The notes under the pieces were generated by a model, which saw only the letters and a program-made list of their open reading frames with translations, made no database searches and was not told the DNA's origin. A program made the translations under genes and the position numbers. A DNA stretch of 63,344 nt, filler included, from Atractiella rhizophila (Eukaryota): the NCBI GenBank assembly GCA_021432655.1. It is 19 parts of 19 records of this genome, joined end to end, with 100 filler letters (N's around TTAATTAATTAA, not from the genome) between each part and the next. Parts side by side here need not be neighbours in the genome. Positions count along the whole stretch, not along the records: positions 1 to 3,313 come from MU272549.1; 18 more parts are not named here. The stretch is one strand, 5' to 3'. This document shows, piece after piece, positions 1-59,189 of the stretch (within the stretch, counting starts at the first letter, position 1; each line of letters begins with the position of its first letter).

Positions 1-336
1 GGTGGTGTAGATGATGGAGACATGCTTGATATCAGGCGACCTGAAGAAATGGACATCTGGCAAATGCCAAGCCTGAGGAGAGTGCATTTCGGATATCTCG
101 ACATCGAATACGCCTACATGAACGACCCGGAAAGCATGGTCGAAGCAGCATGGGAACAGAAGGGATTGTTGAAAGGAAGACCGGTGGGAGGCAGAAGGGA
201 TGTTAAGACGACGAGGAGTGGGATGAGTGCAGATTGCATTTGGGATGAATGGCTCAAAACGCAGTATGGAACCTGGATGGTGGATGCATGCGACACAACA
301 GAGGAAATGAACAGAGCATTAAAGACGATGCATTGA
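1..336 (+). CDS. Hypothetical protein, 3' fragment (possibly the C-terminus of an F-box/LRR-like protein)
   Basis: Reading frame open from the scaffold edge to TGA at 336; 'MPSLRRVHFGYL' resembles an LRR-like strand; convergent with the next gene. Confidence 0.4.
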   Translation, partial: GGVDDGDMLDIRRPEEMDIWQMPSLRRVHFGYLDIEYAYMNDPESMVEAAWEQKGLLKGRPVGGRRDVKTTRSGMSADCIWDEWLKTQYGTWMVDACDTTEEMNRALKTMH

Positions 337-370
337 AATGTACAATCAATCTACGGCCGTTACCATACTT

Positions 371-926
371 CTACAAGTGTAATCGCACCTTTTTCTCTTT
401 ATGTTTATACCACTTTATCACTCCTTTGTCCACCCCAACGTCAACAGTCCAGACTCTCCGGTCAGTGCTTCCCATTATCGTGTTTCCTCTAATCTCAATC
501 CCGTAAATCGGGCTGTCCTCCTTCCCTCTGTCCCACTTATCGCTTTCTTCCACCATAAAAGCGCTGATGCCTCCGGATGTCGCACGTACGTCCCATAAAC
601 CGACGAGGCCATTCCTCATGCCGCCAGCGACAACAGTTGTCCCCCAAGTGGAGACGCAATACCAAGCACTATCATTCCACCGGTCGTGAAGCGAGAGCAC
701 AGGAGCCTTCCCAGAACGCAAGTCGTATAATCGGACGTGGCCGTCGTACCAACCCGTTACGATAGTCGATGAAGGGTTGAGAGTCGAATGCGTCCGTGCA
801 GATGGAGCGGTGATGGAATAGCAGGCGGATTGAGCGGGTGCACTCAGAAACCTCGTTTCGTCAACCCGTCCTAGGCCAGAGGGGAGAATGGGATGCGCTA
901 GGAGACCGGTGCGCTTCGTGGCGCCA
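371..926 (-). CDS. F-box/WD40-repeat protein, C-terminal part
   Basis: Minus frame extends upstream of the listed ORF: GATKRTGLLAHPILPSGL...SACYSITAP...STIVTGWYDGHVRLYDLR...VVAGGMRNGLVGLWDVR...DSPIYGIEI, WD40-type LYD/LWD repeats; stop at 371. Confidence 0.75.
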
Positions 927-2584
927 CGTCGCTCAAAGAGTTCAACCGCTTACTCTTTGGCGTGCAAGACGAACAGACACATCGAGTCAGCACTGGGGTA
1001 ACGAACGACGTAACGAACGAAGTCTCTACCCTATTACCGCACATTCACGACACCTCTTTCGACAGTGCACCAAACAATGTTAATAAGCGCTGTAAACGGT
1101 GGTGGTCGGGACCGGTAAACTCGCCGTCTAAATCTCGACCGTCGACCGTCGACCGTCATATCTGCGTATGAACTCCTCGGCAGCGCAAGGAATGTAACAG
1201 ATAGGGCCTGTGGCTATTATCTTCGCAAAGCTCGAAGTTGACGACGAGTTGGGGGAGCTTCAGACGCTCGTTCAACAGTCTCTCAACCTCGATTCCAGAC
1301 TTTAGACTTCTTTAGCCAAGTTCCGATGTCGTTTGCACGATCGGTATCCCTTAATGCGCTTGAGAACGGTTGAACTTGCTGTAAAGGTTCTCGCTCAGTA
1401 GGTCGAGGTAGTTATATTTGAAGGTGGTGAGCTAGAGCTTAGCTTATGATAATATGGACGATCGTTTGAGCATCTTTCATTCACAAAGAGCCAACAACCC
1501 TCTGGGGTGACTGTTCGTTACCATCTATTTAATATACGTGATGTGCCAGTGCGTTGTCAGAGGAGGTCGACATCGGTGACTTGAACTTGCCTTTCATGTA
1601 GCTCTACCTTGCTGCCGAGTTCCAGCGCCTGCGCTGCAACTAAACGGTTGGAGTTCTCGTCGCGAGGATTGAGATGGCTATCTTGAAGGTAGTCGTTAGA
1701 GAGTATAGAGGGGCGTGCTCTGGAACCACAAGAGAGAGTCATAGTTGTTTCCAGTTACTCGACCAGCTCTGTATACCTACCTTTCTGTACCAGTTACCAC
1801 GCAGTAAAGATGGGCAGATGTTCATGTATAAACTACTTAACCAGTTCCTTAACCCGGACCCGCAGTTTTGTGTTGAGAACTGTGGGCGAGGAAGAGAAGG
1901 GTCGGCTCGACCTTCCTGTTTCACGCCAGCGTAGTGGTGAGGGTCGCGAGCGAGAGCTGGGTATCCAAAAGAAGGGAGGTTATAGAGGCAGTCGCGGGTG
2001 GAGCCCTCGCCCTTACAGGTAAAACGCTGAGCATCTTTTGTTGGAGAAACAGAGTAGACCTGCTTGGCACCTTCAAAAGAGTAATCTAAGCGTTCCTGCT
2101 AGGTTGTTCCAACATAGTACGGTTGACCGATTTCTACAGCAGCCAAACCGTGGGTAGGGTCGCCGACTAGGGAGGAGAAGTGTCTTTGTCTTCGTCTTCG
2201 TCTTAAACAGTGACGTCTGGCGGAACCTCTCTAAGCCGAGACCTTCTGGCAGTTAAGACGAGCTCCCGGGTTTCTAAGTTCCGCCCGCTGCTTAGAGCTT
2301 AGGGGTAGCTAGCCTAAGTTCGTAAGTTCGATAGGTACGGAGGAGCAGAGAGGAACGTTCGCAACGACGGAGGGCAAGCGCATGTGTGTAGTGGGTTGAC
2401 GGAAGGCAGGAGAGAAGGGTTGATAGAGCAAGAGTCTTAGCACGGGTTGTCTGAAGGAGCTTGTGCTCGATAAACTGATAGGTAAGGGACGCGAGTTGAC
2501 GGCGGTTTCGGGGAGGTCTTTGGGAGGGGAATCGAAGGTTTGGTACCCGACAGATGAATAGTGGTCTCGTCCGGTACAAAAACA
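927..2584. other. Reversed-but-not-complemented segment encoding the promoter and N-terminal part of the F-box/WD40 gene
   Basis: The plain complement read left to right gives a GTAAGT..CTGAC..TAG intron (1478-1525), ATG at 1535 (MHYTVTQQSPP...), F-box-like ALLTLPIEL/ISNLSYLPARDLGVLS/VSTKVNELVETYGWK, WD-like FVTADRLGEIRLWK, and ends GHVFV, joining GATKRTG at 926; several single-base frameshifts. Confidence 0.9.
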
Positions 2585-2624
2585 NNNNNNNNNNNNNNNN
2601 NNNNNNNNNCCATCCATCCATGCA

Positions 2625-3313
2625 TTAAAGCTCGTCATGTGAGTGCAGTGGCTCGTCGTCCCCAGATCCAGATCCTCCAGAAGAGTAGAGCTTGGAAGTG
2701 ATGGGCGAGACGACGGCTTGGAGAGCCTGGAGCTTCTCCTCGAAATCCGAAGCGGAGGCGGTCGCGCCATCCTCTTCCATCCAGTCTTGGACCTCTTTGA
2801 TCTCGTCCAAGATGGTCTGCTTATCTTCATCCTCAATCTTGCCACCGAGGGCTTCCTTATCCGTCACTTGTTGCTTGAGGGAGAAAACAAAGTTCTCGAG
2901 CTGCAATGAGGGTAGAAAATTAGCATCAAATGTTGGGGAAGAAAACAAGGACGTACCGCGTTACGCGACTCGACTTTCTTCTTAGCTTCCTCATCTGCCT
3001 CAGCAAATTCCTCCGCCTCCTGAATCATGCGATCAATCTCCTCTTGAGAAAGACGTCCCTCTGGGAACAATTGTCAGATCCATCCCACATCTCGACCAGG
3101 AGGAATACGGAAAGACGTACTGTCATTGGTGATGGTGATAGATTCGCTCTTGCCAGTTCCCTTATCCTGAGCGCTGATCTTCATGATACCGTTGGCGTCG
3201 ACTTCGAAAGTAACTTCGATTTGAGGAACGCCACGAGGAGCGGGGGGGATGCCGGTCAGCTCGAACTTGCCGAGGAGGTTGTTGTCCTTTGTCATCGATC
3301 GCTCTCCCTCGAA
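2625..3313 (-). CDS. KAR2: ER Hsp70 chaperone BiP/Kar2, 3' part (intron-containing)
   Basis: [55 protein letters not shown] and C-terminal HDEL* ER-retention signal. Confidence 0.95.
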
Positions 3314-3413
3314 NNNNNNNNNNNNNNNNNNNNNNNNNNNNNNNNNNNNNNNNNNNNTTAATTAATTAANNNNNNNNNNNNNNNNNNNNNNNNNNNNNNN
3401 NNNNNNNNNNNNN
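3314..3413. other. Artificial scaffold-joining spacer N44-TTAATTAATTAA-N44 (first of 18 in the window)
   Basis: The same 100-nt spacer with six-frame stops recurs about every 3.3 kb; intervening pieces decrease in length from ~3.3 kb to ~3.17 kb. Confidence 0.98.
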
Positions 3414-6715: not shown

Positions 6716-6912
6716 NNNNNNNNNNNNNNNNNNNNNNNNNNNNNNNNNNNNNNNNNNNNTTAATTAATTAANNNNNNNNNNNNNNNNNNNNNNNNNNNNN
6801 NNNNNNNNNNNNNNNGTTTTTGACTTTTACTTTCTTTCTGCCCTTTTGAGCTGGCTATCGCATCTGGTGTCAGTTCCGCCCGCTCCCGTAGTTTAGTCTG
6901 TTTTTCAGCTAT

Positions 6913-8246: not shown

Positions 8247-10015
8247 ATGGACGCCTCAGCCTTCGGAAAGACTCCTAAGCCTTCTTCATCAAATCCCAGC
8301 GACCCTGAAGACCCTGGGAATTTGTCTGATGACGACCACGCATTCAGCGCCGATTCGCGAGAAGTTCCTCATTCTAATGAAGCCATCGGAGTTCAAAATC
8401 TTTCAGTATTGCAGCTGTACTCTCAACCTAGCCGTTTCCTCAGCAACAAACCGACAATTTTTGGCCCACAATTTCGCTTCTTATCGCGTACCGCATCGCC
8501 CGTTGCCTCCAGATCTGCTACCCCAATTCCTCTCTCATCCTCCAGCCCATCCCAAGTTCAAACCGTCAAGATTTTCAAAGTCCCCAACAATGTCAAGAGG
8601 ACGAATGAACAAGGACTCCGAATCCTTGCTATCGACAACGGCGGCATCTGTACCTTCTCCACGCTTTACATGCTTGAAGTCGTCATGCTTGAGGTTGGAA
8701 ATCTCCTCAACGTTCCCGATGGAGAAGAAACCAGGCCATGCGATGTTTTCGATCTCATCTGTGGCACGTCCACTGGCGGATGGATCGCCCTCACGCTTGG
8801 ACGGTTAGGAATGACTGTTCGACAATCCATCAGCGCGTACGAGCAAATCGTCCAGAATGTCTTTTCTGAAGGTCCACTTTCAACAGAAGGCTACACTTAC
8901 TCTGAGGAGAAACTCAAAGATGTCTTCCACAAGATCATTTCTGGACACTTTCCGTTGTCCACATCGACCTCTCAACTTCCTATGAAGGACGACGCGATCA
9001 AAGATAGATGCAGAACTTTTGTCATGTCAAGATACGAATCAAACGCAGTTGTTTCAACAGAGATGCGCACCTATGACGGCCTCAATGCAGTTCACTCTGC
9101 TGCTCGATGTACAGTGTTGGAAGCAGCAAGGGCAACTTCCTCTGCCCCTGAATTCTTTCCTCCTATCACCATCGACAAAGCAAGATATGTTGCCATTGGG
9201 AACAACAACCCAGCCGCAATAGCAATTGATGAGTCCAAGCGTATTTGGGGAGAAGGGAGCCAGATTGCCTGTCTCGTCTCTCTGGGGTCAGGGATTGCTC
9301 CAACTGTTAATTGGGGTCCTACCAAACGCGAGATTGAAGTCGCTGTGAAGGCAATCATCGAAGATTGTTCCCAGGTAGCAGATCAGTTGAAGATGAAGAT
9401 GCAGGATTGTGGTCTAGGGCATCGCTATCACCGCTTTTCAGTCCATACGATGGGAGGTGTCAAGTGGGAGGAGTGGGAGCGAACAAAGGATGTTGTGGGT
9501 CGGACAAAAGCCTATATGGAAGTAATGGGTCATGAAGCACGTAATGCTGCTCAATGTCTCGTGCAGGGTATGTTCTCTTACCTCTTGTGTAATACCACAT
9601 TGAGGTCCTTGTAGCGTTCAGTGAACGGATTGCAGTTCGTCAGCGCTTACCATTACCGCCTCCAGGCTCTTGCTTTGGCCGCAAAGATGAGATCCAACAC
9701 GCAAGAAAAGCTATACTTGAAGGACGCCACGTTACGATAGTGGGTGGAGCTGGAAATGGGAAATCCACTGTTGCACTCAACGCCGTGCACTGCGAAGAGA
9801 TCAAGCAGTCCTTCATAGATCTGGCATGGGGCTCTGGAGAAGATCTCCGCTTCTGGGTTCGCTGCGACAACTTTGACACCTTTGCCAAACTTTCGAATCA
9901 CATCTGCAACGATATCTTTGCACTGCCTAAGTCTAGCAAAACATCGCCAGAAGTTGTGGGAGATTACTTTGGAAGTCGAAAATGCCTTCTCATTTTGGAC
10001 AATTTTGAAACTCCC
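8247..10015 (+). CDS. Patatin-like phospholipase fused to a STAND P-loop NTPase (NLR-like), truncated by telomere
   Basis: LRILAIDNGG, FDLICGTSTGG (GxSxG), AARATSSAPEFF, LVSLGSG; intron 9568-9614 then CFGRKDEI, Walker A GGAGNGKST and Walker B LLILDNFETP. Confidence 0.88.
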
Positions 10016-10110
10016 TTAGGGTTAGGGTTAGGGTTAGGGTTAGGGTTAGGGTTAGGGTTAGGGTTAGGGTTAGGGTTAGGGTTAGGGTTAGGGTTAGGGT
10101 TAGGGTTAGG
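10016..10110 (+). repeat. Telomeric repeat (TTAGGG)15 plus TTAGG at scaffold end
   Basis: Perfect TTAGGG array running to the spacer, G-rich strand oriented outward as expected at a chromosome end. Confidence 0.97.
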
Positions 10111-10329
10111 NNNNNNNNNNNNNNNNNNNNNNNNNNNNNNNNNNNNNNNNNNNNTTAATTAATTAANNNNNNNNNNNNNNNNNNNNNNNNNNNNNNNNNN
10201 NNNNNNNNNNTCTCAGCATGTTCCTAACAGTATAGTCAAAAGCTGAAGTGGTTCTCCGAGGTACGAGGAGACCACTCAGCTTTCATTGTTTTTTGAAGAC
10301 AGTAGAGTACATATGGTGAGTCTGTGCTC

Positions 10330-10465
10330 GCCGAAGGCGAGGCCCCATGCAGTGGCTGCCAGAGGCAAGAGCTCCACGCAGTGGCCGCCAGAGGCTGGGG
10401 TCCAAGGGGCGCAGCCCCTGGCGGGGGGGGCATGCCCGAGGGACGAGGGCACAGACACACTTGTA
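10330..10465 (+). mobile_element. GC-rich hairpin cluster, possible Helitron-type 3' end
   Basis: Repeated GCAGTGG(C/T)..CCAGAGGC, AGGGGCGCAGCCCCT hairpin, then a GCCC..GGGC stem about 9 nt before CTTGT. Confidence 0.35.
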
Positions 10466-26987: not shown

Positions 26988-27899
26988 NNNNNNNNNNNNN
27001 NNNNNNNNNNNNNNNNNNNNNNNNNNNNNNNTTAATTAATTAANNNNNNNNNNNNNNNNNNNNNNNNNNNNNNNNNNNNNNNNNNNNCGACAGGTCAGCC
27101 TCTAACACATCTCCATATGCGGACAGTACTCACATGATGATTTGGCACAAGTAAAAGAACATCCTGCTAGGCCCACTACGGTCGCTTTGGTGAAAGGGCA
27201 CTAAATGAGCTGGAAGCAGGAATCACTGATTCTGATTCACTGTTTCGCGCATCCGAGCGTCAGGACAGCCTGTACGAACGCAGTGTTCGCATGATGTACG
27301 CGCCATTGCGTTATCGGATATGAGTGATCTTTCAACAAGAATTGGACTCTGTCTGGCCCTCAAAACAGCCACTGTGAGGCAAATAAAAGAATAAGAGTGT
27401 TCTAAGGAGGTATTGTCACCACTGAGATTGAAGAGACACCAGAAAAGTACGTTTCCCACTTTTACAGCTGAGGGGTGGGACTTGTTGCGAGTTTTGGGTT
27501 GTTGAAGTTTCGGTGCGACTTTTTTGGCCAATTACGAGGTATAGAACAGCTTCTTGCTGCTCGAGCTTTTGTAAAAGTTATATGTTTAAAGACTTAGACT
27601 TCTTCGCCTCAAAAGATATTGGCATGAGTTCCGCCAGCCAACTCTCCCGATGTCAGCCAACCAAATGTGTACCAATGCAGGTTTCTGACAAAAGCGTGCG
27701 CACTGATATACCTACAATTTTCACATACATTCCAAAGCCGTGCGGTTCCAAGCTAAATATTCCACCTCTAACCTCTCGCTGGATGGTAACAGTACATCTG
27801 CTTCACCTTTAAATTGTGAAGTGGGAGTTTGGAGTCTCCGTTTGGGCTTTGATCTACAAGAACAGCACTGATATGGGGATACTCCACAGAATTTTTCCA

Positions 27900-29634
27900 A
27901 TGCCATCACCACGACCGCCGATTTCTGTGCGAGCCTTTCGGCGTTCCTTGCATCTCTCCTCAACGCTACGCAGTGGTAAACCCCTTCAACCTCCATCGTT
28001 TCCCTGCCTGGACCAACACGACGCGCGCACCGCCAAAATTCTTTCCAGTCGTCAACAGAACGCTCCGCTCGAGCCTGATGACGCAGGACAAGGTGACTAC
28101 GATTATTAGGAAGGATGCGCAAGTCCACTCTCTACTCGCGACCCGCTATGAGCTGTAAGGAGGGTACCTACTAGGGTGTCTACGTATATCAAAAAGTTGC
28201 GGATTAAGTAGATTTCCAACTTAACTCGGGCGTGTAATAGCTTATCTCTCTGGTCGCCCTTCGCGCTAGGCATAGAAACACTTCAATGGGGGGGTAGAGG
28301 GAAGGAGGCTCAGGAAGTTCCGAAGACCTTTACCTCTACTACCAGGCCACCTCGGTATCGTCGGCGGGCTCTTGCAACGTCGTCTATTGCTTCATGACTA
28401 GACACAGTTCTCGAAAGGGTCCAGGTTATTTGAAGAGGGTGGTAGGAAAGAGACCTAAGCGGAGACACGAAAACCGTACTGATCTACGACTTTCTGGTCA
28501 TACTTCCTCATACCGCAACGAGAACAGAAGTAACTCGCAAGGGGTGCAAAGCATCCGTTACCACATCAACCCATCTCCGTGCCTCCTCATCTGATCACCC
28601 TTTCCGAGTAATACACACATATACACTATCCTTCACCCTCTACCTCTCCTTATCTACCAAGTCCCGGGCGAAAGACGAACCCCAAGCCTTCCTCCTCACT
28701 TAAAAAGGGTTGTGCCTGCTGCCCGCTCTTTGGACTACACCTGNNNNNNNNNNNNNNNNNNNNNNNNNNNNNNNNNNNNNNNNNNNNNNNNNNNNNNNNN
28801 NNNNNNNNNNNNNNNNNNNNNNNNNNNNNNNNNNNNNNNNNNNNNNNNNNNNNNNNNNNNNNNNNNNNNNNNNNNNNNNNNNNNNNNNNNNNNNNNNNNN
28901 NNNNNNNNNNNNNNNNNNNNNNNNNNNNNNNNNNNNNNNNNNNNNNNNNNNNNNNNNNNNNNNNNNNNNNNNNNNNNNNNNNNNNNNNNNNNNNNNNNNN
29001 NNNNNNNNNNNNNNNNNNNNNNNNNNNNNNNNNNNNNNNNNNNNNNNNNNNNNNNNNNNNNNNNNNNNNNNNNNNNNNNNNNNNNNNNNNNNNNNNNNNN
29101 NNNNNNNNNNNNNNNNNNNNNNNNNNNNNNNNNNNNNNNNNNNNNNNNNNNNNNNNNNNNNNNNNNNNNNNNNNNNNNNNNNNNNNNNNNNNNNNNNNNN
29201 NNNNNNTTCGAAGGATTGCAAGAGCTTGAAACGTTGTGGAAAGGCAACAACCCCAACAAGAGCCTCTCCTTCTTGCCCCGCTCGACTTCCTCCGGAGGCG
29301 ATGGCGTACCGCATATTCCATTTTCGAAGTCACCCGCGTTCCTCTCATCCCTCACCGATGGAATGAGCAATCTTAAGGACATTCCCACTCTTGTCATTGG
29401 TGTCCAAAGCGACGTTCTCTTTCCTGTGGAACAACAGAGGGAATTGGCTCAAGCATTGAGAGGTTCTGGTAACAAATCTGTCGTCTATTATGAACTTGAT
29501 GGCCCATGGGGTCACGACACCTTCTTGTGAGCTTTGTGTCTCATGCACTTTGTGGAAATCTGATGGCCTCCCACAGGATCGATACTGCAAATGTTGGAGG
29601 GGCTATTCGTGGATTTTTGTCTCAGTCTCTGTGA
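27900..29634 (+). CDS. Serine O-acyltransferase (Cys2/CysA-like, homoserine O-acetyltransferase family); middle part reversed in the assembly and partly in an N gap
   Basis: Arg/Ser-rich mitochondrial-type presequence plus SFPCLDQHDAR (27900-28066); reversed 28743->28067 gives [45 protein letters not shown]; after the gap LVIGVQSDVLFP..GHDTFL/IDTANVGGAIRGFL..*. Confidence 0.9.
28067..28743. other. Second reversed-but-not-complemented segment (catalytic core of the Cys2-like gene)
   Basis: Reading the + strand right to left without complementing yields about 220 codons of alpha/beta-hydrolase-fold acyltransferase with a few 1-nt indels; abuts a 463-N internal gap. Confidence 0.95.
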
Positions 29635-36990: not shown

Positions 36991-37296
36991 NNNNNNNNNN
37001 NNNNNNNNNNNNNNNNNNNNNNNNNNNNNNNNNNTTAATTAATTAANNNNNNNNNNNNNNNNNNNNNNNNNNNNNNNNNNNNNNNNNNNNGAAGGAAGGA
37101 AATCGCTCTTTGGTGAGAGTGAATAAACACGAACAAACACGGAAATGTAAGGTACTGCAGGTTGGTTGGCGGTTTCACGCCGTGTTGAATGAACTGGGAT
37201 CATCTCAAGGGTCCCGGTCTCAAGTAGAGGCGGACGGATCGTCCGGAGCCTATAGATTTAGGTTCCAGACAGAGTATTGTCTTCCGTGTGTGAGTA

Positions 37297-37422
37297 GTAC
37301 TCATGAGGACAAGGGTACCTGTGTCAAAGGTCACAACAAGTTACAAATCAGGCTCTAAGCTGATCGATACTCATGAGTAAGGGTACCACCGTACTCACGA
37401 GTACTACTCGTTGGCATCTCTA
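37297..37422 (-). mobile_element. Probable hAT-type transposon terminus with subterminal repeats
   Basis: Reverse complement begins TAGAGATGCCAACGAGTAGTACTCGTGAGTAC; repeated GTACTCA(T/C)GAG and AAGGGTACC motifs inside. Confidence 0.5.
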
Positions 37423-40408
37423 TTAAAAAGCAGACTTAAAAATCACCATTGTTTTGAGGGTCTTTTCTTCAACTTTAATAAGGCTTAAATTATTACAGCC
37501 TTGGCCCTTTAAGCCAACACTGGTTGGCTTGGTTTGTTAACCCCAGAGGGGTTATGGACAAGGGATTTTTTTTTCAACAATCTTCCGGTTCAGATCCATT
37601 TTTTTCTTCACCTTGCTGGATCCGACAGGTCTTATAGAGTGTTTGGGGATGGCAAGGTGCTTTTAAACCTCATTCACCCCCACATTTTGAATTTTGGCCA
37701 CACTGTCTGACTGGGATTTTTATGGTACTCAGCATCCGATGAGACTTGACAGGGCTTTCGAAGCCAACAATTTAGGTCTTGATGGGGAAGGAATGAGCCA
37801 AGGAACTCCTGGCTCTGCCCCTTTTGCAGCTAACATGTGACCCCTCCGCCATCGCTAGAGGTGGTGTGGTCATCAGACCACCTGGGACATAGCACTGGAG
37901 GCTTGGAGTGTGGACTGAAGTTGCGCTATCATCTGTGTGCCCATATTTCCCAGCGATTGTTATAGTTATTGCATGCTATGCAGGGAGCGAAAACCAAAAC
38001 AAGACTTAAACCTCCGATTCTTCGCCTTACGACAATCCACCTCCGTCTTAACAAACCCTGGCTTGGTCGTTTACTGCTTTCGTCTACGTGTACATGTTCC
38101 ATTACTGACCCAACAGCTACACCCCAATATCAACTCTGACAAACGGAATTTAGGAGAGCGCTGTCTTTGAGGTTTTCACATGTTTTCCCACAGGAAACAA
38201 CACAACGCGATTGGATCGTTCCTACCGAACCGTTCACCTCTGATCTTACAAGAAATAAGATGCTTCCTGATGACTGCAGGGCGTTTGTCTTTTCATCCTA
38301 TTAGCCTGAAGGGAAAGAGGGAGTGAAGCCACTGCACCACTCACATTTGTTCTCCATGTCAAACCTTTGACAGATGCAACTAAGAGTTAATGAAAGGACG
38401 TTAATGAAGCTGTTAGCAACGCACGCTTGACCTACCTCCGGTGTGAACAAAAAGGCAACGAAGCAGATAATGAGGTCAGGAGCAGAGTATTGAGCTTACC
38501 TCTCAGCCAGAGTAAGCCATCTCTAGTTGTCGGAAAGTATTCTGTGCCATACTGGTCAAATACTCGTCGATATGAGCCTTCACAAAAGGGATGAGTTGGC
38601 GTCAAATTGCGTTATAACCACCTTACCAGCAGGAAAGACTTTGAGGAAACCGTTATAATGAATTCAAAGAGTTGTCAGCTGCCTACCGATCAAAATGTCC
38701 TCAGCTGAACTACATCCGTGACGGTTTTTAAAGTCTTCGAGAGAATACAACTTGCCCATCCATGTTTTCCAGATATAGACTTCGTCCGTCTCGTTCATCC
38801 TCTCGCAAGACGTTTCCAACATGTAGTAAGGGGGGTAGGCTAAAGCTTATGACAGCTGCCTTTTATCTGGCTCATGCAGTTTATCCGTGTGAAACCGTCA
38901 CATGGCGTCACGATCTGTGGTCAATTGACATTCAGCGCATCACATCCATCGTTGCCCAACCCGTGTCGGTAAATTTCTACAATCTTTGTCCACATTGATG
39001 AAGGATGAAGAATACAGGGAATAGGTCTCCTAGTTACAGCGTGGCTCCATCTACAATTTCCTCACAGCAAGGCTAGCTCATAGTTGCGATCACGATGTTC
39101 CTTGAAGTAGTAGGGGCGGGTCTGCTCTAGGTGCTCCAATAAATGGATCAGCACAAGAACAATGTTGCAATGGGTGAATATGAAATGCGTTGAGACACAA
39201 CGAAGCGGTACAAACTTCAGTAGACACAACGAAAGTGATCCCCAAATTGACGACTGAAAGCATCATCACTTCCGGCGAAGCTTGTTCGATTCGCTCTTCG
39301 ACCCATCCACATCCACTTCCTCTATTGTCTTTCTTTTTGTTGTTGGCACTAAAACCTTGTCGATAAGGTTCCGTTTGTTGTTCACCATCGCTTTCAATTC
39401 ACCCTCCCGACAATGTACGACATTCTCTAAGACCCATATCAGACATCTCAACAGTTGCATTTCCGCTCCGACGAATAGTTCATCATCCAAGATACTCCTT
39501 GTCGGATCAGATTCGCCAAAGATGGTCTCCAATTCCTCCGATGGAATTCCTAGCGTTTCGCAAAGTTGGGTTACCAGAGCGCCGCGACGCCCGGCAAAAT
39601 AACCCCACATATCTTCATCGACGTAACGAGCGTTAATGCTGCTGGAGGGGCGGTTACGGAGCTTGTTTGGGCTGCTCAAGTTGGTCGACATCATGTCGAG
39701 CCGTTGTTGAGCATACCCGTCACCCAAGGAGTCGGAGACCGTCGGTGTTAAAACTGGTCGAAAACTGGTTGACCAGTTTTGTGCTGCGGGGAAACTGGTC
39801 GATGTCGGGCGCACCACGTGCCCGAGGCCACAAACATGGCCAAATCTTCCTTCGAAATGGAATGAGGAAAAGAAGGAAGATGGACGGACCCACAAACCGC
39901 AAGCAACGGCGGAGGAAAGGACTGTTATACAAGTCCTTCCTCCTTCTTCCATCTACCCATCCGCCACCCTTTCCTTCCCCATCTTCTCATCCACCTAGCT
40001 TCCTCCGACATCCTCTATTCTCTGATATGTGGGTGTGCTTCTGCAGCATGGCGAAAAGGTGCGCCTCTCTTGTTACTTCTCATTCCTTTCCTCTTTGCAT
40101 GAATGTTGTACTAATAATTATCTCCCAGCATTTTTCTGTTTCCGCTTGCTTCTCACCTTCCATCCACCAGCTTCCACGGCCACTACTCTCTCATGCCCCA
40201 CCCCTCCTCATCCCATCCACTCTGTCCCACCCTTCACGCCTTCTCCCAGCAGAGTACCAGCTCATTGGACCTTATTCAATCGTCATGTCTGCGCTTTCCT
40301 CCAACATCNNNNNNNNNNNNNNNNNNNNNNNNNNNNNNNNNNNNNNNNNNNNTTAATTAATTAANNNNNNNNNNNNNNNNNNNNNNNNNNNNNNNNNNNN
40401 NNNNNNNN

Positions 40409-56897: not shown

Positions 56898-59189
56898 ACC
56901 TGCCGCTCAGCTGTCACCAAGGCTCTATCCGACAACTGGTTTCGATGTCATACCGCCTTCCGAGTTAGTAGAGGAAGAAACCCTACCTTCGTACGTTGTG
57001 GCTGGCTATTATCCCGCTCGGCTTGGAGAAGTCCTCGACTCGCGCTTCCAAATTGTTGGAAAACTTGGTTACGGCGTTACCTCGACCGTTTGGATGTGCC
57101 GAGATCTCACGTAGGGATTATATATCCACTATAACCTATGGTATGCGGTTTACTGTTCCTGGGGCACAGATTTACAACGACGCCTACTTATCGTGCAGTC
57201 AAAATTTACACGAGAGACGCATCCCGAAGGAAGAATAGAGAAGTTCCTGCTTTGCACCATCTCGCATCCATTCAAAGTGATGACGTTGGAAAAATTGGCA
57301 TAAGATTCATGACGGAACAGTTTTCGATACCTGTTGGCGAAGCAGAGCACACTTGTCTTGTCCATCGTCCCTTGGGTACGAGTATTCAGGATCTGTGCGA
57401 CCTTTCGCAAGAAGGCAATGGTGACTTGCCTGTTATTTTCCTGAAAGCTCTATCAATGCGAATGCTGCATGCCTTGAACTTTCTTCATTCTGAAGCTCGG
57501 CTAATACATACTGGTTCGTCTTTCTCTCCATTTTGCCCCATGGTGATCTGACACCATCATCGACATTCACAACAGATTTACAGCCGAAGAACATCCTTTG
57601 TAGGGTCGAAGATCCAGCCCTCCTTGAAGCGTATGAAGAGGAAGAGTTCCAAGATATGCCAACTCCTCGAAAGATCGACGGAGATCGTATTATCTATCGT
57701 TCTCGGCCTCTTCGTCTGTCACTAGGACTGCCAGTGCTCGTTGATTACGGTGAAGTGCGTTTCGCAGATCAAGGACCTTTCTCGGAGGACATCATGCCTA
57801 TCATGTATCGCGCTCCTGAGTTACTGCTATGGATACCATGGAGCTATAAAGTCGACATTTGGGACCAAATTGTTGGAAAACTTGGTTACGGCGTTACCTC
57901 GACCGTTTGGATGTGCCGAGATCTCACGTAGGGATTATATATCCACTATAACCTATGGTATGCGGTTTACTGTTCCTGGGGCACAGATTTACAACGACGC
58001 CTACTTATCGTGCAGTCAAAATTTACACGAGGGACGCATCCCGAAGGAAGAATAGAGAAGTTCCTGCTTTGCACCATCTCGCATCCATTCAAAGTGATGA
58101 CGTTGGAAAAATTGGCATAAGATTCATGACGGAGCGGTTTTCGATACCGGCTGGCGAAGCAGAGCACACGTGTCTTGTCCATCGTCCCTTGGGTACGAGT
58201 ATTCAGGATCTGTGCGACCTTTCGCAAGCAGGCAATGAGGACTTGCCTGTTATTTTCCTGAAAGCTCTATCAATGCGAATGCTGCATGCCTTGAACTTTC
58301 TTCATTCTGAAGCTCGGCTAATACATACTGGCTCGTCTTTCTCTCCATTTTGCCCGATGGTGATCTGACACCATCATCGACATTCACAACAGATTTACAG
58401 CCGAAGAACATCCTTTGTAGGGTCGAAGATCCAGCCCTCCTTGAAGCGTATGAAGAGGAAGAGTTCCAAGATATGCCAACTCCTCGAAAGATCGACGGAG
58501 ATCGTATTATCTATCGTTCTCGGCCTCTTCGTCTGTCACTAGGACTGCCAGTGCTCGTTGATTACGGTGAAGTGCGTTTCGCAGATCAAGGACCTTTCTC
58601 GGAGGACATCATGCCTATCATGTATCGCGCTCCTGAGTTACTGCTATGGATACCATGGAGCTATAAAGTCGACATTTGGGGATTAGGCATGACGGTACGC
58701 ATCTGATTCGCAATTTGATGTAACAGCCTTCAATAAATGGTTCCGGTGCACAGATCTGGACTGCCGCACAGAAGGGAAACCTTTTTCGAGGGTGGGAAAG
58801 GGATGGATACCACAACTGGCGACATCTTTCGGAGATGTTGGCACTGCTAGGGCCACCTCCAAAGGCTGTTCTCGAACGCGGACAGTTTAGCAACATTTTT
58901 TTTGACGAAGATGGTTTGTATTCTCTTCGACCCTCCTGTTTATGTCTGATTCCTCGTGTTAGGGAATTGGAAAGGCGAGGCAATTGGCATCAGTGTCCCA
59001 GCCATGTCGCTAGAGGAAAGGGCAACAGTCCTGGAAGGGGTGAACAAACGGCGGTTTCTGAATTTCATTCGCAGATGTTTGCAGTGGAATCCAGATGCAA
59101 GACCAACAGCGAAGGAGTTATTGGAGGATGAGTGGATCACATCTGCGAAAGAGGATGTGAAAACTGGAGCTGAGTCGTCGTCAGAGTGA
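56898..59189 (+). CDS. SRPK/Sky1-like CMGC Ser/Thr kinase with internal tandem duplication, 5' truncated
   Basis: EEETLPSY..YYPARLGEVLDSRFQIVGKLGYGVTSTVW, AVKIY, HTDLQPKNIL, DYGE, YRAPE, KVDIW, HLSEMLALLGPPP, RPTAKELLEDEW. Confidence 0.9.
57048..58681 (+). repeat. 817-bp near-perfect tandem duplication (57048-57864 / 57865-58681)
   Basis: Both copies start CCAAATTGTTGGAAAACTTGG and end GTCGACATTTGGG; roughly ten substitutions seen and no indels. Confidence 0.97.

Follow-up and report, generated by a model that had tools for sequence, protein, structure and literature searches.

We observed that positions 927-2584 of the window (the whole stretch of DNA that was analysed, 63,344 bases in length) are no biological feature. 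The letters printed there are those of real DNA, but they run from last to first and were left uncomplemented, and this assembly artefact was almost certainly produced by a gap-filling or contig-extension step, which wrote the low-accuracy continuation of the left flank via a wrong string operation. The segment is reversed, has an exact left edge, finds its homologs in the flipped form, carries at least some indel errors and has a counterpart elsewhere in the window. In its printed form it conceals the larger part of a gene of the F-box/beta-propeller type, whose end is readable in the flank in normal orientation. The coordinates of all features are collected in Table 1.

Table 1. Features of the two scaffolds that contain inner gaps; positions are those of the window.
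Feature	Position	Strand	Remarks
Mirror segment (first block)	927..2584	.	Real DNA reversed, uncomplemented; readable as the complement from left to right (the same as the reverse on the + strand)
End of the F-box/beta-propeller gene	374..926	-	Last 184 codons (925-374), plus base 926 completing a split codon; normal orientation; contigs of 4 runs
Upstream non-coding portion of the reversed block	927..1477	.	In the true layout, the end most distant from 926
Intron-like stretch, 48 nt	1478..1525	.	Complement reading: GTAAGT donor, CTGAC branch site, AG end; motif only; just before the ATG
Hidden gene, about 350 codons	1535..2584	.	Complement reading; several frame shifts; continues into 926-374 (-)
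Probable F-box-like motif	1658..1806	.	Complement reading; three frames, two indels; three collinear pieces against a profile of the F-box regions of 7 relatives
25-N gap	2585..2609	.	Contigs of 4 runs show other, real letters before 2610-2612
ER-type Hsp70, C-terminal part	2610..3313	-	Ends HDEL; normal orientation; Pfam HSP70 E 2.4e-25
Acetyltransferase, N-terminal piece	27993..28058	+	Normal orientation; matches of relatives
Second mirror segment (second block)	28067..28743	.	Read backwards on the + strand: about residues 65-260 of homoserine O-acetyltransferase; left edge ± about 15 nt or more
463-N gap	28744..29206	.	N run in the window
Acetyltransferase, C-terminal 107 codons	29207..29527	+	Normal orientation; NCBIfam MetX E 1.5e-10

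The window consists of 19 small scaffolds, ordered by falling length from 3313 to 3171 bases and joined by 18 spacers, each of the form N44-TTAATTAATTAA-N44 (3314-3413, 6716-6815 and onward). Since it is a pseudomolecule built with spacers, scaffolds that are adjacent in the window are not neighbours in the genome. The accessible text of a TIGR paper gives NNNNN TTAATTAATTAA NNNNN as a contig separator (PMC539331). As far as that text goes, the six-frame-stop separators of the TIGR pseudomolecules contain the same 12-mer as the spacers found here, where it stands between two 44-N runs; the length of the N runs differs, and the separators have no connection with the reversal described below. 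Inner gaps are present in only two scaffolds of the window, and they measure 25 N and 463 N. The genes of the window are those of a fungus-like eukaryote, and for one of them the best relatives are basidiomycete proteins.

As printed, the segment 927-2584 contains no sensible open frame in any of the six frames (the longest stop-to-stop stretches are of 80-119 aa, with 16-29 stops per frame), as the original prediction had stated. When its complement was read from left to right, the longest frames were of 129-206 aa, with 12-16 stops per frame. The richness in TAG and CTA that had also been pointed out was confirmed: these triplets amount to 29.0 per kb in the segment as compared to 17.6 per kb elsewhere in the window, which is about 4 standard deviations higher than in 17 control chunks of 1658 nt (mean 18.0, sd 2.6, maximum 25.4). 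GAT and ATC show the mirror-image deficit (19.3 per kb vs. 37.0 per kb elsewhere), and this exchange between the two pairs of triplets is exactly what a plain reversal yields. In the complement reading, the anticipated intron motifs were present, an ATG was found at 1535-1537, and the reading that ends at 2584 continues in frame on the minus strand from 926; these three details of the prediction therefore hold as they were given. The portion upstream of the intron-like stretch showed no homology in any orientation, either with tblastn or with the family profile described below, and its orientation score was flat.

The junction at 926/927 was analyzed by comparing positions 1-3313 with public sequencing runs, namely X1 and X2 (from one sample), X3 and X4 (guessed to be RNA), which were all available as Logan contigs and not as raw reads. 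The runs that were found contain no more than 0.38 of the words sampled from 1-3313, where the two flanks represent about half of the non-N bases. In all four runs, a contig matches the window up to 926 and then continues with 56-255 letters that depart from the printed sequence, which places the left edge of the segment exactly at 926/927. The right edge, 2584, coincides with the start of the 25-N gap. The first 30 letters past 926 are identical among the four runs and correspond to positions 2584..2556 read backwards, with 28 of the 30 in agreement: 14 identical letters are followed by one extra C, 5 identical letters, a G in place of T, and 9 identical letters. The extra C restores the reading frame: with it, the frame that is open in the central part of the block passes without interruption into the normally oriented part of the gene at 926. 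The record is therefore in error here, at a run of C. The runs also differ from the window at some positions of the flanks, so that they may derive from other isolates, and the two differences seen in the loose ends could in part reflect strain variation. The pure reversal that had been proposed is consequently proven by reads for the first 30 letters only, which are the visible part of the loose ends, and for the remainder of the segment it is supported by homology and composition. No contig of the four runs lies on 1000-2553; since absent contig cover is evidence neither way, we relied on the loose ends at 926.

The visible part of the gene, which terminates with a stop codon at 373-371, was used to search for relatives. 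The best Pfam beta-propeller match of 374-925 (minus strand) gave an E value of 1e-4 and 21.9 bits, far below the curated cut-offs, and the fragment spans only about two to three blades. Its product resembles a propeller, and its place among the WD40-type propellers would be putative. An exhaustive search with the 184 visible residues retrieved 480 library proteins at E<=0.001, and many of these are proteins of 370-620 aa that show a single match at their C-terminal end. A word-index search with the same region returned no longer relatives, whereas the exhaustive search did recover longer ones. The closest library proteins to the C-terminal part are 38-45% identical, among the matches listed, and the identity between the hidden gene and its relatives is low, at about 25-40%. 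A Pfam F-box was found at the N-terminus of 7 out of 20 relatives that were scanned. A metagenome scan for the locus of a close relative yielded one WD40 stretch of 33% identity (L001), which was of no use.

The listed relatives of at most 800 aa were used as tblastn queries on the scaffold, both as printed and with the block flipped. Nine segments collinear with the C-terminal match fell inside the flipped block, and none inside the printed block. A family profile was then constructed from 81 of the 150 listed relatives of the C-terminal part (the 69 outside the range 350-620 aa were dropped). This profile matched the complement frame with an E value of 1.4e-12 over profile positions 45-279 (Z=12), and its best E value on the six printed frames was 0.13. 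Frame-shift-tolerant alignment of the N-terminal parts of five relatives gave 72-136 on the complement, as compared to 38-67 on the three other orientations. The number of frame shifts in the block varied from 0 to 7 according to the query, the relatives being too distant for reliable counting. As had been predicted, then, the gene remains invisible until the segment is flipped. These searches also bear on an ordinary inversion or a misoriented contig, that is, a reverse complement that a six-frame search would resolve. Misoriented contigs are common beside gaps in draft assemblies, and they likewise consist of real sequence misplaced by a gap, with a broken gene model; however, every search tool can still read them on the opposite strand, whereas the mirror block can be read on neither. 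Since tblastn and the profile found nothing inside 927-2584 on both printed strands, and the match emerged only on reversal without complementing, we attribute next to no probability to this explanation.

At the N-terminal side of the hidden gene, an F-box-like motif is probably present, as suggested by the pieces that match the profile of F-box regions (Table 1), the best of which has an E value of 0.002 (Z=12). When single F-box regions were used as queries, one out of seven scored clearly above controls (89 vs. 29-31), and five out of seven pointed to the same place. The F-box-like motif of the original prediction is therefore visible, but it is statistically weak and split over three frames. 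As for the WD40-like strands, homology to the beta-propeller family is clear, and is seen in the complement only, but the Pfam cut-offs are not reached by 374-925 (minus strand). An N-terminal F-box-like motif followed by beta-propeller blades is the arrangement that the hidden gene probably shares with the F-box/WD40 adaptors of SCF ubiquitin ligases, from which it differs in its divergent propeller, with all Pfam models under cut-off.

In genomic DNA, reverse complementing leaves the oligonucleotide statistics unchanged, whereas plain reversal alters them. This property was exploited in a homology-free orientation test, based on a third-order Markov model of both strands of the window, with the suspect regions left out of training. 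For 927-2584, the reversed reading was preferred by 37.8 nats (score -37.8), whereas all 17 control segments of equal length favoured the printed reading (mean +41.5, sd 11.3, minimum 13.7), which corresponds to z = -7.0. The cumulative score turned at about 895 and exactly at 2584, and most of the signal came from 1700-2584, the coding part. A score of -18.7 was obtained for 28067-28743, as compared to a mean of +18.5 (sd 7.9) for 72 controls (z = -4.7). In a sliding scan, only two further places were flagged, a TTAGGG telomere and the stretch to the left of the 463-N gap. Both the sliding scan and the cumulative score contain an uncorrected edge bias of about 4 nats per edge, which does not affect the results. 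The test can detect blocks of about 400 nt or longer in coding DNA.

Other negative scores have different origins. The one at 9701-10400 was considered as a reversal and rejected, because it stems from a telomere repeat: TTAGGG is present there in about 15 copies (10017-10110), at the right end of a scaffold and in the orientation expected of a telomere. Right ends that appeared reversed in 15 out of 15 scaffolds proved to be an edge effect of the score (the last three bases, one term), which was gone once corrected (p 0.64, 0.89, 0.36). Windows of 400 nt at 37101-37600 and 56898-57200 scored from -0.5 to -3.9, inside the tail of the controls, and have no adjoining inner gap.

The possibility that 927-2584 is real as printed, and is an odd piece of non-coding DNA whose complement looks like a gene by chance, has to be set against these data. 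The loose ends of all four runs at 926 go on with the reversed letters, the profile match is confined to the complement frame, and the orientation score lies 7 standard deviations from the controls. Moreover, DNA replication and recombination are established to give reverse complements, not plain reversals. We therefore regard the probability of this reading as negligible.

The stretch to the left of the 463-N gap, flagged by the orientation test, was analyzed with the relatives of the normally oriented piece that follows the gap. This piece has 116 relatives, many of which are named homoserine O-acetyltransferase by their sources; its MetX match is partial and under the NCBIfam equivalog cut-off because it is a fragment. 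The 80 relatives of at least 430 aa were used as queries, and within the second block all of them matched only the reversed form, with a best E value of 1.9e-52 and 70% identity. Moreover, 29 of the 80 also matched the printed plus strand within 27873-28097 with their residues 1-103, which represents the normal left flank. The reversed homology extends from about 28692 to 28067, and these 626 nt are interrupted by four frame shifts and by 1-2 stops. On the left, the block begins near 28067, considering that normal homology ends at 28058 and reversed homology at 28067. A break-point scan left this edge unfixed, as its score climbed for trivial reasons. A collinear match to full-length homoserine O-acetyltransferase (MetX/Met2) was obtained across the flank, the block and the right flank, and the matches of the relatives indicate that the gene runs from the left flank through the reversed block and the gap into the right flank. 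On these sequence grounds, 28067-28743 is assigned as a second reversed and uncomplemented block, in which the central part of a homoserine O-acetyltransferase gene is concealed.

Each block continues its left flank up to an inner gap and contains far more errors than the flanks do. The original prediction had ascribed the first one to a software error made on extending the left contig into the 25-N gap. A second block was found directly to the left of the one remaining inner gap, which supports the view that a gap-extension step was the source. Such a step would have acquired low-accuracy sequence that truly continues the left flank 1-926 into the scaffold gap. A faulty string operation would then have reversed a plus-strand extension without complementing it, or complemented a minus-strand read without reversing it, which would give the same letters. 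In the true layout, 1-926 is followed by 2584 back to 927 and then by the gap, and a gene of about 530 codons, of the F-box/beta-propeller type, lies on the minus strand from printed position 1535 down to 374. We infer, as the most economical explanation, that one software step is behind both blocks. The indel-rich character attributed to the segment was borne out, since the F-box lies over three frames and the real DNA has one C more in the last 30 letters of the segment. A homopolymer-type indel is also suggested, by a judgement made by eye on the translations, at the first frame shift of the second block. Indels of this type point to long or homopolymer-error-prone (flow-based) reads as the probable origin of the extension, and the source may thus well be "long-read-like", as had been put forward.

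As for the other side of the gap, the 30-letter loose end that precedes 2610 was sought with up to 7 errors allowed, and it was present in neither the reversed nor the printed block. When the reversed block was compared with the window by blastn, nothing was returned either, so that we have no indication of an extension as far as the right flank.

PBJelly is a long-read gap filler. According to the accessible text of its paper, a gap consists of 25 or more N, the flanking contigs are extended by reads that reach into it, and overfilled gaps are extensions beyond the predicted size without overlap (PMC3504050). Reversed, uncomplemented output is not described in that same text. A default minimum gap of 25 appears in the accessible text of a horse genome paper (PMC6240028). 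In the window, one error-rich extension of a left flank ends at exactly 25 N and another at a reduced gap of 463 N. The adjoining inner gap, the continuity with the flank and the errors would agree with a gap filler of this kind, but the sequence names no tool, and a similar outcome could be expected of other gap fillers. In assemblies treated with PBJelly, a residual gap is reset to 25 N. Our search of the literature found no description of reversed-uncomplemented assembly errors.

The reversal might also have taken place after assembly, through a slip in data handling or an intentional change to the record (during masking, format conversion or the building of the pseudomolecule). The N44-TTAATTAATTAA-N44 spacers show that the record has been post-processed, and the lack of a tool name in the sequence would agree with this explanation too. 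However, both blocks (2/2) start at the end of a contig flank and stop at an inner N gap, both are much richer in errors than the flanks, and the telomere repeat is the only other place where a 400-nt window scores as clearly reversed. A corruption that struck at random after assembly would not pick low-quality sequence at gap edges, and for these reasons we consider a change made after assembly very improbable, and a faulty gap-filling or extension step the explanation to be retained.

The fact that both inner gaps of the window are affected (2/2) indicates a systematic fault of the gap-extension step, and more such blocks are probably present elsewhere in the assembly. In its broadest form, which we put forward tentatively and hold to be somewhat less probable than its opposite, the gap-extension program writes left-flank extensions reversed without complementing, and this would concern many or all of the extended gaps here and maybe other assemblies made with the same version. 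If the fault is systematic, every such block hides real gene parts from all six-frame searches, and these blocks could be located and mended across databases by simply testing the orientation of the sequence beside gaps. Plain reversals are not seen by BLAST, by gene finders or by quality checks that make no use of reads. In this record at least two genes are truncated, the F-box/beta-propeller gene and the gene for homoserine O-acetyltransferase, an enzyme of methionine synthesis, and the latter could be misread as missing or broken. The segment holds no new biology; its value lies in quality control, in the repair of the record and in the checking of other gap edges.

Two minor observations concern the neighbours of the F-box/beta-propeller gene. 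To the right of the 25-N gap, the Hsp70 gene contains introns at 2901-2956 and 3061-3120, which are skipped by spliced contigs of X3 and X4 and have CT..AC ends on the plus strand. On the opposite side, an open frame of 111 codons enters from the scaffold start at 1-336 (plus strand) and is convergent with the F-box/beta-propeller gene.
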